A program made the position numbers and the translations under genes. Positions 45,298 through 48,900 of a DNA stretch of 64,000 nt are shown one piece after another. The DNA is from Anaerolineae bacterium (GTDB lineage: Bacteria > Chloroflexota > Anaerolineae > Epilineales > JAHCIE01): positions 9,559-73,558 of the forward strand of contig JAXLWL010000004.1 in NCBI GenBank assembly GCA_046328505.1, read 5' to 3'. Each line of letters opens with the position of its first letter. The stretch's first letter is position 1. The notes below the pieces were generated by a model. It did no database searches. It saw only the letters and a list, made by a program, of their open reading frames with translations, and was not told the origin of the DNA.

Positions 45298-48200
45298 ATG
45301 GCGCGGCTGGAGGAATTGACGCGGGGGGCGATGCTGTCGGGCATTCTGCCGGGCAGCGTGGTCACGATCCTTGATGTCAGATGGCACGGCACGACAGCCG
45401 TCGAACTGACATATAAGAGGCCGGGTGGTCAACTGGGCAACGAGCTTCTCTTCCGCAGCCGCGAGCCCGAGCTGGCCATCGTCTCCAACGGCCGCACCTG
45501 GCGCTTCGACGCCGACGGCGCTCTCCTCCGCCTGGTGTCCGAGGCTTACCGCATCCGCCTCGCCTACCTGTTCGACCCCTACCTGGCGGTGAACACCTCG
45601 CGGGTTGAGCCGCTCCCCCACCAGATCACCGCCGTCTACAGCGAGATGCTGTCGCGCCACCCCCTTCGTTTCCTCCTGGCCGACGACCCCGGCGCCGGCA
45701 AGACCATCATGGCCGGGCTGCTCATCAAGGAGCTGCTCCTGCGCGGTGATCTCCACCGCTGTATGGTGGTCTGCCCCGGCAGCCTCGTCGAACAGTGGCA
45801 GGATGAACTGGACACCCGCTTTCACCTCCCCTTCGAGATCCTGACCAACGACAAGCTCGAGTCGGCGCGCACCGGCAACTGGTTCGCCGAGAACCCCCTC
45901 GTCATCTGCCGCCTCGACAAGCTCAGCCGCAACGAGGACGTCCAGGACAAGCTCGCGCAGGTGGATTGGGACCTCATCGTCTGCGACGAGGCCCACAAGA
46001 TGTCGGCCAGCTACTTCGCCAGCGAGGTGCGCTACACCAAGCGCTACCATCTCGGCCAGCGCCTGTCGAGCATCGCCCGCCACTTCCTCCTCATGACCGC
46101 CACACCCCACAACGGCAAGGAGGAGGACTTCCAGCTCTTCATGGCGCTCATCGACCCCGACCGCTTCGAGGGGCGCTTCCGCGACGGCGTCCACGCCGCC
46201 GACAACTCCGACCTGATGCGGCGGCTGACCAAGGAGCAGCTGCTCAAGTTCGACGGCACGCCCCTCTTCCCTGAGCGGCGCGCCTACACCGTGGACTACG
46301 ACCTCTCGCCGGCCGAGGAAGACCTGTACCAGCAAGTGACCGCCTACGTGCGCCAGGAGTTCAACCGCGCCGACCAGCTCGAGAGCGAGGGGCGGCGGGG
46401 CACGGTCGGCTTCGCCCTCACCACGCTGCAACGGCGGCTGGCGTCGTCGCCCGAAGCCATCTACCAGTCGCTGCGCCGCCGCCGCGAGCGCCTGGAGAAG
46501 CGCCTGGCCGAGGAGCGCGAGCAGAAGCGCCGCCCGGATGCGACGATTGACCCGCTGGCCGACCTGCCGACGGTCGCGTCGGAAGACGACTGGGACGACC
46601 TGGACGAAGAGCCCGAGGACGAGATCGAGGACACCGAGGAGCGCGTCGTGGACCAGGCGACGGCGGCGCGCACGATTGCCGAGCTAGAGGCGGAGATCCT
46701 GAGCCTGCAGCGGCTGGAGAACCTGGCACTGGGGGTGCGGCGCAGTCACACCGACCGCAAGTGGGACGAGCTATCGAAGCTCCTGCAAGACGACCCCGAG
46801 ATGTTCGACGCCGAGGGCAACCGCCGCAAGCTCGTCGTGTTCACGGAGCACCGCGACACCCTCAACTACCTGCTTCACCGCATCCGCGGCATGCTCGGCC
46901 GGCCGGAAGCCGTCGTCGCCATCCACGGTGGCATGAGCCGCGACGCACGCCGCGAGGCTCAGGGGCAATTCACTCAGGACAAGGGCGTGCATATCCTCGT
47001 CGCGACAGACGCGGCCGGGGAGGGCATCAACCTCCAGCGCGCCCACCTGATGGTGAACTACGACTTGCCCTGGAACCCCAACCGCCTGGAGCAGCGCTTT
47101 GGGCGCATCCACCGCATCGGCCAGACCGAGGTCTGCCACCTGTGGAACCTCGTCGCCGACGAGACGCGCGAGGGCGAGGTCTACACGCGCCTCCTGAAGA
47201 AGCTCGACGCGGAGCGAGTGGCCCTCGGCGGCCAGGTCTTCGACGTGCTGGGCAAGCTGCGGTTCGACAACCGGCCGCTGCGCGAGCTGCTGGTTGAGGC
47301 CATCCGCTACGGCGACCAGCCCGACGTGCAGGCGCGGCTCTACCAGGTGGTGGACCAGGCGCTCGACCGCCAGCACCTCATTGACCTCATCGAAGAGCAC
47401 GCCCTGGCGCGGGACACGATGGACGCCGCCATGGTGCGCCGGGTGCGCGAGGACATGGAGCGCGCCGAGGCGCGGCGGCTGCAGCCCCACTTCATCGCCG
47501 CCTTCTTCATCGCGGCGTTCGCCCACCTGGGCAGCACGGTCCGCGAGCGCGAGCCGCGGCGCTACGAGATCAGCCACGTGCCGGCGGCCGTCCGCCAGCG
47601 CGCCAGGGAACTGACCACGCGCCAGCCGGTGAACGATCGCTACCAACGCATCACCTTCGAAAACACGCTCACCCATGTGCAGGGCAAGCCGGAGGCCGAG
47701 TTCGTCTGCCCCGGCCATCCGCTGCTGGACGCGACGATTGACCTCATCCTGGAGCGCCACCGCGACCTGATGAAGAGCGGCGGTGTCCTGGTGGACCCGA
47801 ACGATCCGGGCGAGGAGGCCCGCGTTCTGTTCACCCTGGAGCACGCCATCCAGGACGGCCTCACCGACCGCAGCGGTCAACGCCGCGTCATCTCCCGCCG
47901 CGTGGACTTCGTCGAGATTGACGAGGCGGGCCAAGCGCGCTCGGCGGGCTACGCGCCCTACCTGGACTACCGCCCGCTGACCGACGAGGAGCGACAGTAC
48001 GCCGAGAGGATCTTGGAGCAGCCGTGGCTGGCGGGCGACCTGGAAAGCCAGGCGACGACGTATGCCGTGGAGCACCTCGTGCCGCGCCACTTCGAGGAGG
48101 TCAAGCGCTACAAGGACGAGCTGCTGAAGAAGACGCGGGAAGCAGTGTGGGAGCGGCTGACCAAGGAGATCTTCCACTGGGACGGGCGCGCGGTCGAGAT

Positions 48201-48900
48201 GGAATTGAAGGAGCGGGCGGGAATGACGCCGAAGCTCAACTCGGCCAGGGCACGTCGAGTGTGCGACGACCTGACCGAGCGCCGCACGCGACGCATGGAG
48301 GAACTGCACCAGGAAGCGCGCCTCTCGCCGCTGCCGACAGTCGTGATCGGCGGGGCGCTCATCCTCCCGGCCGGCCTCCTGCAGCGCATCGCCGGCCGGC
48401 GCGACGCCGAGATGGACGCGTTCGCCCGCGAGACGAAGCGGGTGGAGTTGGCGGCGATGACGGCGGTGATGGACATGGAGCGGCAGCTAGGGTTCGAGCC
48501 GCGTGACGTGAGCGCCGACAAGGTGGGCTACGATATCGAGTCGCGCTTGCCTGGTGGAGCGGGCGGTGGCAAACTCAGGTTCATTGAGGTCAAGGGACGC
48601 GTCGCAGGGGCCGAAACCGCCACGGTGACCAAGAACGAGATCCTGACCGCCCTCAACAAGCCCGACGACTGGATCCTGGCGTTGGTGCAGGTGCCGCCCA
48701 GCCCCGACTTCGCGCCGGGCGATGTCTACCACGGCATCCGCGACGAGCCACCGCCGTACGGCAGCGTCGCGCCGGTCGTGCGCTATCTGCGGCGGCCCTT
48801 CTTCCGCGAGCCGGACTTCGGCGTCACTAGCGTCAACTACGACTTCCACGACCTCTGGGAGCGCGCCGAGGAGCCGGTGGTAAGTACGATCTCCAGTTGA
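45298..48900 (+). CDS. SNF2/DEAD-like superfamily-2 helicase (~1200 aa) with C-terminal DUF3883 (restriction-endonuclease-fold) domain
   Basis: Walker A LLADDPGAGKTIMAG, DEAH box LIVCDEAHKM, helicase-C LVATDAAGEGINLQRAHLMVNYDLPWNPNRLEQRFGRIHRIGQ. C-terminal GYDIESRLPGGAGGGKLRFIEVKGRVAGAETATVTKNEILTALNKPDDWILALVQV matches the DUF3883 signature. Start at the ATG at 45298 with GAGGGA upstream. Confidence 0.8.
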   Translation: MARLEELTRGAMLSGILPGSVVTILDVRWHGTTAVELTYKRPGGQLGNELLFRSREPELAIVSNGRTWRFDADGALLRLVSEAYRIRLAYLFDPYLAVNTSRVEPLPHQITAVYSEMLSRHPLRFLLADDPGAGKTIMAGLLIKELLLRGDLHRCMVVCPGSLVEQWQDELDTRFHLPFEILTNDKLESARTGNWFAENPLVICRLDKLSRNEDVQDKLAQVDWDLIVCDEAHKMSASYFASEVRYTKRYHLGQRLSSIARHFLLMTATPHNGKEEDFQLFMALIDPDRFEGRFRDGVHAADNSDLMRRLTKEQLLKFDGTPLFPERRAYTVDYDLSPAEEDLYQQVTAYVRQEFNRADQLESEGRRGTVGFALTTLQRRLASSPEAIYQSLRRRRERLEKRLAEEREQKRRPDATIDPLADLPTVASEDDWDDLDEEPEDEIEDTEERVVDQATAARTIAELEAEILSLQRLENLALGVRRSHTDRKWDELSKLLQDDPEMFDAEGNRRKLVVFTEHRDTLNYLLHRIRGMLGRPEAVVAIHGGMSRDARREAQGQFTQDKGVHILVATDAAGEGINLQRAHLMVNYDLPWNPNRLEQRFGRIHRIGQTEVCHLWNLVADETREGEVYTRLLKKLDAERVALGGQVFDVLGKLRFDNRPLRELLVEAIRYGDQPDVQARLYQVVDQALDRQHLIDLIEEHALARDTMDAAMVRRVREDMERAEARRLQPHFIAAFFIAAFAHLGSTVREREPRRYEISHVPAAVRQRARELTTRQPVNDRYQRITFENTLTHVQGKPEAEFVCPGHPLLDATIDLILERHRDLMKSGGVLVDPNDPGEEARVLFTLEHAIQDGLTDRSGQRRVISRRVDFVEIDEAGQARSAGYAPYLDYRPLTDEERQYAERILEQPWLAGDLESQATTYAVEHLVPRHFEEVKRYKDELLKKTREAVWERLTKEIFHWDGRAVEMELKERAGMTPKLNSARARRVCDDLTERRTRRMEELHQEARLSPLPTVVIGGALILPAGLLQRIAGRRDAEMDAFARETKRVELAAMTAVMDMERQLGFEPRDVSADKVGYDIESRLPGGAGGGKLRFIEVKGRVAGAETATVTKNEILTALNKPDDWILALVQVPPSPDFAPGDVYHGIRDEPPPYGSVAPVVRYLRRPFFREPDFGVTSVNYDFHDLWERAEEPVVSTISS

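Follow-up and report, generated by a model that had tools for sequence, protein, structure and literature searches.

A probable three-gene Hma (Type-1 BREX-related) system spread apart by embedded cargo in an uncultured Anaerolineae bacterium

The anti-phage system Hma, defined by Payne et al. (2021; PMC8565338), comprises a helicase, a methylase and an ATPase, and has been reclassified as a Type-1, DUF499-centred BREX-related (BR) system, with the HEPN-DUF499 variant in 1370 of 2446 taxa (PMC12839542). Here, we analysed a stretch of 64,000 nucleotides from a metagenome-assembled genome (MAG) of an Anaerolineae bacterium (GCA_046328505.1, contig JAXLWL010000004.1, positions 9,559 to 73,558), which is referred to as the window. 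It contains a gene for a 1200-residue helicase-nuclease (45298-48900, plus strand) next to an operon for a thymidylate synthase (TS)-like protein and a kinase. The original prediction, made without database searches, regarded the helicase-nuclease either as the restriction-like arm of this operon or as a stand-alone defence protein. Our analysis indicates that the gene is very probably hmaA, the putative effector gene of a three-gene Hma system, and that the TS/kinase operon is separate cargo.

The experimental data on HmaA considered here come from the protein of Halomonas meridiana (Liu et al., 2024; PMC11232893). This protein alone lowered T4 propagation in Escherichia coli by about 100-fold, and defence was abolished by the motif VI substitution R610A as well as by changes in the nuclease (D1084A/E1104A/K1106A/E1121A). 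In the presence of Mn2+, its isolated 142-residue C-terminal domain nicked supercoiled pUC19 and left linear lambda DNA uncut. The equivalents of the mutated Halomonas residues are all intact in the protein encoded in the window.

In the mechanical list of open reading frames (ORFs), the gene spans 45265-48900 on the plus strand, and the ATG at 45298 was chosen as the start codon. This choice is supported by a purine-rich GGAGGGAGAGAGGG stretch before the ATG and by the N-termini of homologues, since MARLEELTRGA fits the consensus MARLExLTRGA of 31 homologues, in which M1 is invariant; the coordinates 45298-48900 given in the original prediction are therefore exact. A 100% identical protein, P0001, encoded on a contig of 836,658 bp, is annotated as 'MAG: helicase-related protein [Anaerolineae bacterium]'. 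When defence classifiers were consulted, as had been suggested, the HmaA profile of PADLOC (PDLC00659) matched the protein over its full length with 1691.4 bits (residues 1-1193 against profile positions 1-1172 of 1176), and the next-best family, DrmD, reached 399 bits over the helicase core only.

Three Pfam domains scored above their gathering scores, namely SNF2-rel_dom (residues 124-349, 63 bits), Helicase_C (residues 496-608, 81.5 bits) and NOV_C (PF13020, formerly DUF3883; residues 1049-1132, 62.5 bits). The Swi2/Snf2 ATPase core, delineated by Pfam, conservation and a match to RapA in sequence and fold, covers about residues 100-650 (45595-47247, plus strand) and includes motifs Q (LPHQ, 106-109), I (GAGKT, 132-136), II (DEAH, 230-233), III (TATP, 267-270), V (570-579) and VI (QRFGRIHRIGQ, 599-609). 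The C-terminal PD-(D/E)XK nuclease domain (about residues 1015-1135; 48340-48702, plus strand) has the expected D...ExK...E residues within GYDIES (1077-1082; D1079), FIEVKGR (1095-1101; E1097 and K1099) and TKNEIL (1111-1116; E1114). Across 120 sequences these four residues and the helicase motifs were invariant or nearly so; GAGKT and QRFGRIHRIGQ were invariant in 119-120 of them, except for A133 (Ala in 105, Ser in 15). The complete helicase core and the DUF3883 domain that had been read from the sequence were thus recovered with every motif quoted for them. The assignment of DUF3883 to the restriction-endonuclease fold, and hence of the protein to helicase-nucleases, also held, given the intact PD-(D/E)XK residues and the Hjc-like fold. 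As far as can be judged from the sequence, both active sites of the window protein are intact. It agrees with the known HmaA proteins (PMC8565338; PMC11232893) in its full-length profile match, Pfam trio, helicase motifs and D...ExK...E residues, with an identical K-to-E spacing of 15. Its placement in an anti-phage helicase-nuclease family is further backed by the defence activity measured for the Halomonas homologue. The window protein is another copy of a known, experimentally tested family, and adds nothing new about HmaA itself.

Because Hma is a three-gene system of helicase, methylase and ATPase, partner genes were looked for. A DUF1156 N6-adenine DNA methyltransferase gene, hmaB, is located at 55046-58171 (plus strand; PADLOC HmaB 1208.5 bits, Pfam DUF1156 112.6 bits). 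Its start codon is uncertain, and homologues align from about residue 40 of the window ORF; motif I (VLDPFCGGG) begins at residue 181 and motif IV (DPPY) at residue 635. The third gene, hmaC, runs from an ATG at 61037 to 64000 on the plus strand and past the window end, with 988 residues inside the window (PADLOC HmaC 1011.8 bits). Its product is an AAA+ ATPase with an N-terminal HEPN_Swt1 domain (127.5 bits in Pfam) followed by DUF499 (99.6 bits), and contains the HEPN Rx4H motif RNRWAH from residue 94, a Walker A motif (GGGKT, 247-251) and a Walker B motif (LILIDE from 357). HmaB and the 988 residues seen of HmaC look catalytically intact. Since both genes lie on the same strand as hmaA and keep their motifs, the window would hold a complete Hma system, with the known A-B-C gene order, DUF1156 methylase, HEPN-DUF499 ATPase and cargo between the genes; by the naming scheme of PMC12839542, this would be a HEPN-fused Type-1 BR system. 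The partners lie 6.1 and 12.1 kb downstream of hmaA behind inserted genes, which is why they were missed in the original prediction.

In the middle of hmaB, around codons 450-750, the GC content at third codon positions (GC3) falls to 0.55-0.57, as opposed to 0.8-0.9 in the flanks. The low-GC3 region is part of residues 361-760, where conservation of HmaB is lowest, with mostly 39-52% identity compared with 60-80% in most of the flanks. This pattern is consistent with a swapped target-recognition region in the middle of the protein. Residues from about 241 to 280 form an insertion that is missing from most homologues (83% gaps).

In the full-length AlphaFold model of HmaA, an N-terminal five-stranded beta domain (residues 1-63; 45298-45486, plus strand) precedes the ATPase core. 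Beyond the core lie a region of helices (about 620-745), a domain rich in beta strands (about 748-890), an extended coiled coil (915-1007) and the nuclease domain. The strands of the N-terminal domain (12-14, 21-30, 34-40, 46-52 and 60-63) have a predicted local distance difference test score (pLDDT) of about 71-83, and residues 740-1200, predicted again on their own, reached 86.5. Type-1 BR helicases have an N-terminal TUDOR domain (PMC12839542), and the modelled beta domain would be Tudor-like by position. The overall architecture is RapA-like and the nuclease fold is Hjc-like: RapA, whose N-terminus contains Tudor-like domains, was the top Foldseek match (6bog_A; E value 8e-29 over 1136 columns) and was also matched by sequence (E value about 1e-40, residues 92-292). 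The middle of the protein had been described as about 450 residues of unknown function. It indeed carries no Pfam domain over some 430 residues (roughly 620-1048), yet its conservation is good (column identity of 49-72% relative to the window sequence) and it folds confidently.

These similarities raise the question of whether the protein might instead belong to a related helicase family, i.e. DrmD of DISARM, BrxHI or BrxHII of BREX, DpdE of Dpd or ZorD of Zorya, or be a housekeeping RapA-like factor. Partial PADLOC matches to the core exist for DrmD (399 bits), BrxH (319 bits) and DpdE (140 bits), and RapA is the best relative of solved structure. BrxHII and DrmD share with HmaA a homologous Swi2/Snf2 core, RapA-like accessory domains and an N6-adenine methylase partner, and the partner AAA+ ATPase of BREX (BrxC) is related. 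However, the match to HmaA scores four times higher and spans the whole protein, whereas BrxHI (residues 95-718 of 1200), BrxHII (78-824) and DrmD (97-792) leave the C-terminal third with the nuclease uncovered. In NCBIfam, the scores were below the curated cut-offs for DrmD (NF038317; 364.9 against 610), DpdE (196.5 against 500), RapA (192.4 against 576) and ZorD (56.4 against 1500). Among the window neighbours there were no matches to DrmA/B, PglZ/BrxC, Dpd or ZorA-C, and unlike BREX and DISARM loci, the vicinity of hmaA has no PglZ, BrxA/B/L or DrmA/B/C. E. coli RapA (PDB 6bog and others) resembles HmaA in its N-terminal beta domain, Swi2/Snf2 core and C-terminal domains, but it is a housekeeping RNA-polymerase recycling factor without a nuclease domain, whereas HmaA has an extra Hjc-like PD-(D/E)XK domain and sits in mobile defence loci. 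Membership in the DrmD, BrxH, DpdE, ZorD or RapA family and a housekeeping role were rejected on the basis of the NCBIfam cut-offs and gene context, and we give this alternative almost no chance of being correct.

The distribution of hmaA also speaks against a housekeeping gene. In order to compare the window with other members of the family, we surveyed 80 other genome loci from more than 15 phyla. The taxa with HmaA homologues of 60-73% identity include Chloroflexota, Armatimonadota, Acidobacteriota, Planctomycetota, Cyanobacteria, Nitrospirota, Proteobacteria, Bacillota, Verrucomicrobiota and a Methanotrichaceae archaeon. When the ORFs within 8-10 kb upstream of hmaA were clustered for 42 of these loci and the window, 269 of the 275 families were confined to a single locus. 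A homologue was found in 68 plasmid records and in none of the phage records; it was full length in 47 of the plasmid records, and in 28 the plasmid was predicted to be mobilizable or conjugative. Two MAGs have two hmaA loci each (L019 and L025 in CAWDQE01; L024 and L031 in DAIMXP01). In L019, hmaB seems to be cut short, as just query residues 46-648 were matched, and hmaC was seen only as a fragment. Universal presence and conserved synteny, which the original prediction had named as grounds for abandoning a defence role, were thus not observed: hmaA is patchy, occurs on plasmids and has non-syntenic flanks, and is not a housekeeping gene.

Gene order, on the other hand, is strictly kept. In every surveyed locus with enough flanking sequence, hmaA, hmaB and hmaC follow each other in this order on one strand. 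Of the 80 loci, 69 contained hmaB, and in most of the others the available sequence ends less than 2 kb after hmaA. The gap between hmaA and hmaB (n=69) had a median of 1486 bp and ranged from 7 bp to 8 kb (14 loci with at most 300 bp, 43 with 300-2500 bp and 12 with more than 2500 bp), and the median gap between hmaB and hmaC (n=48) was 72 bp. The window system is interrupted twice, by about 6.1 kb and about 2.9 kb, respectively, both of which fall in the upper tail of these distributions.

Such interruptions are a known feature of the family. Embedded genes have been reported in 62.7% of 1,485 Hma systems, with 96.7% of these genes co-oriented (bioRxiv 10.1101/2024.01.29.577857), another study found insertions in 66.5% of Hma systems (PMC11232893), and the hmaA-hmaB junction is a documented insertion hotspot. 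Our survey reproduces this published picture: the gaps of the other loci contained 106 ORFs (38,336 residues) on the Hma strand versus 14 (1,630 residues) on the opposite strand, and their content was diverse, with 72 singleton families. Only the size and the opposite orientation of the hmaA-hmaB insert are unusual in the window, where, unlike in published Hma systems, the 6.1-kb gap holds seven ORFs, all but one of them on the opposite strand. The published PADLOC survey allowed at most 3 embedded genes (bioRxiv 10.1101/2024.01.29.577857), and an automatic system call with such a limit might miss the window Hma.

The most interesting material of the region is the embedded cassette, with its CapH/CapP-like regulators, two TS-fold proteins and a 5-hydroxymethyldeoxyuridine (5-hmdU) DNA kinase. 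Its six genes occupy 48983-54167 on the minus strand. The last of them, a TS-like gene of 345 codons (48983-50020; Pfam Thymidylat_synt 83.9 bits), is convergent with hmaA, as had been noted in the original prediction, with the two stop codons at 48983 and 48900. It is preceded by a gene for a fusion of a deoxynucleoside monophosphate (dNMP) kinase and a 5-hmdU DNA kinase (49974-51716; Pfam HMUDK_hel 377.6 bits, Thymidylate_kin 46.5 bits) and by a gene for a 266-residue protein (51713-52513). The latter had no Pfam or PADLOC match, and BLASTP identified it as a second, divergent TS-fold paralogue (E value 5e-05 against the window TS-like protein, with the active-site Pro-Cys of TS aligned). 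Further upstream are an M78 (IrrE/ImmA-type), CapP-like metallopeptidase (52503-53375; Pfam Peptidase_M78 56.2 bits, PADLOC capP 67.6 bits), a CapH-like Xre-type helix-turn-helix (HTH) regulator (53372-53749; Pfam HTH_3 57.9 bits, PADLOC capH 52.3 bits) and, as the first gene of the cassette, a 152-residue protein without Pfam or PADLOC match (53709-54167).

Two further inserted genes are on the plus strand. A CBS-like gene of 246 codons (54270-55010; weak Pfam CBS match, 28.4 bits) lies immediately upstream of hmaB, with a weak promoter-like site at 54213-54241 in front of it. Homologues of about 40% identity are found directly upstream of hmaB in L002 (7104-7850) and L047 (16388-17128), and the gene could represent accessory or cargo content that recurs in Hma loci. 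DefensePredictor listed CBS among newly validated defence domains (PMC13092281). Between hmaB and hmaC, a gene for a 799-residue STAND NTPase with NB-ARC/nSTAND1 and TPR domains in Pfam (58571-60970) had no PADLOC match, and none of the 80 other Hma loci has a homologue of it; by the argument of 'guilt by embedding', it would be a candidate Avs-like sensor. Neither the TS/5-hmdU-kinase cassette nor an NTPase of this kind was seen inside any of the other Hma loci surveyed. GC3 is 0.87-0.97 in hmaA and hmaC, about 0.7 in the CBS-like and STAND genes, and 0.45-0.62 in the minus-strand cassette (overall GC about 0.52), which marks the cassette as a foreign and recent insert. No convincing insert-boundary marks (terminal direct or inverted repeats, tRNA genes or an integrase) were found in the window. 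Both gaps hold independently acquired defence cargo, and the locus illustrates the embedding of defence genes in Hma in textbook, if extreme, form.

The original prediction proposed that HmaA is the restriction-like arm of the TS/kinase operon, i.e. that it would cut DNA according to the thymidine modification made by the operon. The cassette is indeed immediately adjacent to hmaA and convergent with it. However, HmaA already has a cognate methylase, and the suggested co-occurrence statistics do not favour this proposal. The cassette was missing from 79 of the 80 other Hma loci. Conversely, we examined 48 metagenome loci with close relatives of the kinase, about 16 of them with at least 8 kb of flanking sequence, and HmaB or HmaC was near the cassette in none of the 48, including those with long flanks. 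These loci revealed a conserved operon of HTH regulator, M78 peptidase, 266-residue protein and kinase, with or without the TS-like gene; the 266-residue TS-fold protein accompanied the kinase in 28 of the 48 loci and the longer TS-like gene in 12, and homologues of the 152-residue protein occupied the same position in 7. The neighbours elsewhere included SoFic, QatA and, in one locus, an unrelated DpdE/ZorD-like Snf2 helicase. Considering the absence of HmaB and HmaC together with these unrelated defence neighbours, the cassette is an autonomous module with a tendency to be located among genes for defence. In six metagenome loci, the TS-like gene was missing and a different co-oriented gene followed the kinase: L100, L102 and L107 had a gene pair (about 270-300 and then about 190 codons), and L098, L105 and L110 had just one of these genes. 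Such variants point to a family of cassettes in which the nucleotide-enzyme modules are exchangeable. A scan of viral contigs with the kinase found no relative, and phage GenBank records matched only its helical domain, with 28-36% identity; these results thus give no support for the cassette having recently come from a phage.

The single other Hma locus with the cassette, within 10 kb of hmaA, was L068 from Planctomycetota (43-61% identity). There, the cassette lies outside the Hma system, about 5 kb upstream of hmaA and beyond KwaB-like and integrase-family genes. The order in L068 (DASXUX010000014.1, 1-23576) is the cassette with a divergent TS-like gene, a KwaB-like gene, a 183-codon gene, an integrase-family gene and hmaA, then an AAA_21 ABC ATPase gene and three further genes, and finally hmaB and hmaC, so that the cargo between hmaA and hmaB is unlike that of the window. 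The L068 kinase is 53% identical to the window copy, whereas those of L089, L088 and L121 are 65-69% identical. The L068 cassette is therefore not the closest relative of the window cassette, and the two co-locations with Hma are independent events.

That a rare cassette was found near Hma twice independently suggests clustering, and these two co-locations are the sole support for a functional coupling of cassette and Hma. They differ in phylum and geometry, involve non-sister cassettes, and could equally reflect clustering in defence islands; such ordinary aggregation explains both without coupling. If there were coupling, a CapH/CapP-like switch de-repressed on infection could, for example, lead to 5-hmdU or 5-phosphomethyl-dU in replicating phage DNA, and thus to lesions or marks as targets for HmaA as a translocase-nickase, or, conversely, the cassette could protect host DNA from HmaA. 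Taking into account the foreign GC3 of the cassette and the activity of its distant relative DS-4, which defends E. coli without any Hma gene (PMC13092281), we consider it very unlikely that HmaA serves as the restriction arm of the cassette, and coupling of any kind, rather than mere co-location, appears equally improbable.

Among known systems, DS-4 ('NTTI') comes closest to the embedded cassette. It was validated as an anti-phage system in E. coli by DefensePredictor and consists of a thymidylate synthase, a dNMP kinase, HMUDK_hel, TIR and Nmad2 (PMC13092281). Like DS-4, the cassette has a TS homologue (27% identity, BLASTP E value 4e-17), a dNMP kinase, in this case by Pfam domain only, and HMUDK_hel (27% identity of the window kinase to the DS-4 protein, E value 2e-30). 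Unlike in DS-4, the kinase and helical domains are fused in the window, and the identity is only about 27%. Profile scans of the cassette ORFs gave no match to TIR or Nmad2; in their place are the second TS-fold protein, the M78 peptidase, the HTH regulator and the 152-residue protein. Since TIR and Nmad2 were not found, the cassette is regarded as a relative rather than a member of DS-4.

With regard to the mechanism, a restriction-modification (RM)-like division of labour among HmaA, HmaB and HmaC could be inferred from domain logic and PMC12839542. HmaB would mark host DNA by N6-adenine methylation, the ORC/Cdc6-like DUF499 ATPase HmaC might recognise unmarked or invader DNA and license HmaA, and HmaA would translocate on double-stranded DNA with ATP, as RapA and other Swi2/Snf2 enzymes do, and nick or cleave the invader. 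The HEPN domain of HmaC might provide a back-up RNase.

The other suggestion of the original prediction, that the protein is a stand-alone anti-phage helicase-nuclease, has to be weighed against this scheme. According to this alternative, HmaA would be an autonomous single-protein defence in the style of Hna or Nhi, with HmaB and HmaC dispensable or merely modulatory. T4 protection by Halomonas hmaA alone equalled that of a larger construct, pre-exposure of T4 to HmaB had no effect, and hmaB and hmaC were present in 85.3% and 80.7% of 1079 hmaA loci, respectively, so that some lack them (PMC11232893). In Hna and Nhi, a helicase is likewise fused to a nuclease or works together with one, and each was enough for defence when tested alone (Table 2 of PMC11232893), and an abortive-infection-like phenotype is known for Hna and, non-canonically, for HmaA (PMC11232893). 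However, Hna (ResIII/Helicase_C_2) and Nhi (SF1) belong to other helicase families and have no conserved methylase or ATPase partners; both were absent from the top PADLOC matches of HmaA, beyond which no further membership test of either was made. The heterologous test of HmaA alone was a single one, with over-expression and one sensitive phage. On the other side, the invariant order and strand, the tight hmaB-hmaC junction, the frequent presence of hmaB and the catalytic motifs kept in HmaB and HmaC of the window argue for joint function. The stand-alone idea is thus upheld as far as the Halomonas protein is concerned, but the window copy is one of three conserved genes, and we find it unlikely, though worth keeping in mind, that HmaA works without its partners.

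Several points weigh against the assignment of the window genes to a complete and functional three-gene Hma system with HmaA as its effector. The support for HmaA in the window is computational, the host being an uncultured Anaerolineae bacterium represented by a MAG, and the full-length structural model reached no more than a moderate pLDDT of 64. Between helicase and nuclease, an inactive REase and an alpha/beta domain have been described (PMC12839542), a label that could not be confirmed for the window protein. hmaC is cut by the window end. The opposite-strand insert of 5.2 kb parts hmaA transcriptionally from hmaB and hmaC, and coordinated expression is unproven: a scan of 44900-61200 gave promoters and terminators not above the shuffled expectation (5 versus 4.4 and 7 versus 12.1, respectively). 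The RM-like division of labour is only inferred, since HmaA alone sufficed in the Halomonas work, where T4 from an HmaB-expressing host was not protected and the motif I substitution T136A raised rather than abolished defence (PMC11232893). Nevertheless, we maintain hmaA of a three-gene Hma system as the very probable identity of the gene.

Directly upstream of hmaA, 31405-45186 (plus strand) is a run of conflict-type genes, encoding a LysM/FtsK/BTAD protein of 1149 residues, two proteins with NACHT and FGE-sulfatase domains (1018 and 1060 residues), a caspase (C14) and an NB-ARC protein with TPR. Therefore, the window Hma sits in a larger STAND-rich island. Further away, GC peaks at 0.724 in 22001-24000 (strongly negative GC skew, -0.17), with flanks of 0.61 and 0.66, and many long overlapping ORFs are found there, as is typical of a very GC-rich gene.

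In terms of annotation, what looked like an orphan helicase-nuclease is corrected to a complete three-gene Hma, or Type-1 BREX-related, system. Cargo scatters its genes over at least 18.7 kb, which makes the system easy to overlook, and it provides a concrete case in which a classifier with a small limit on gene gaps could fail to detect Hma. The locus also extends the concept of 'guilt by embedding', as it indicates that Hma can host a large, opposite-strand and self-regulated cassette, a CapH/CapP-type-regulated relative of the recently validated DS-4. It offers a natural setting in which to ask how nucleotide-modification enzymes known from phages serve cells against phages.

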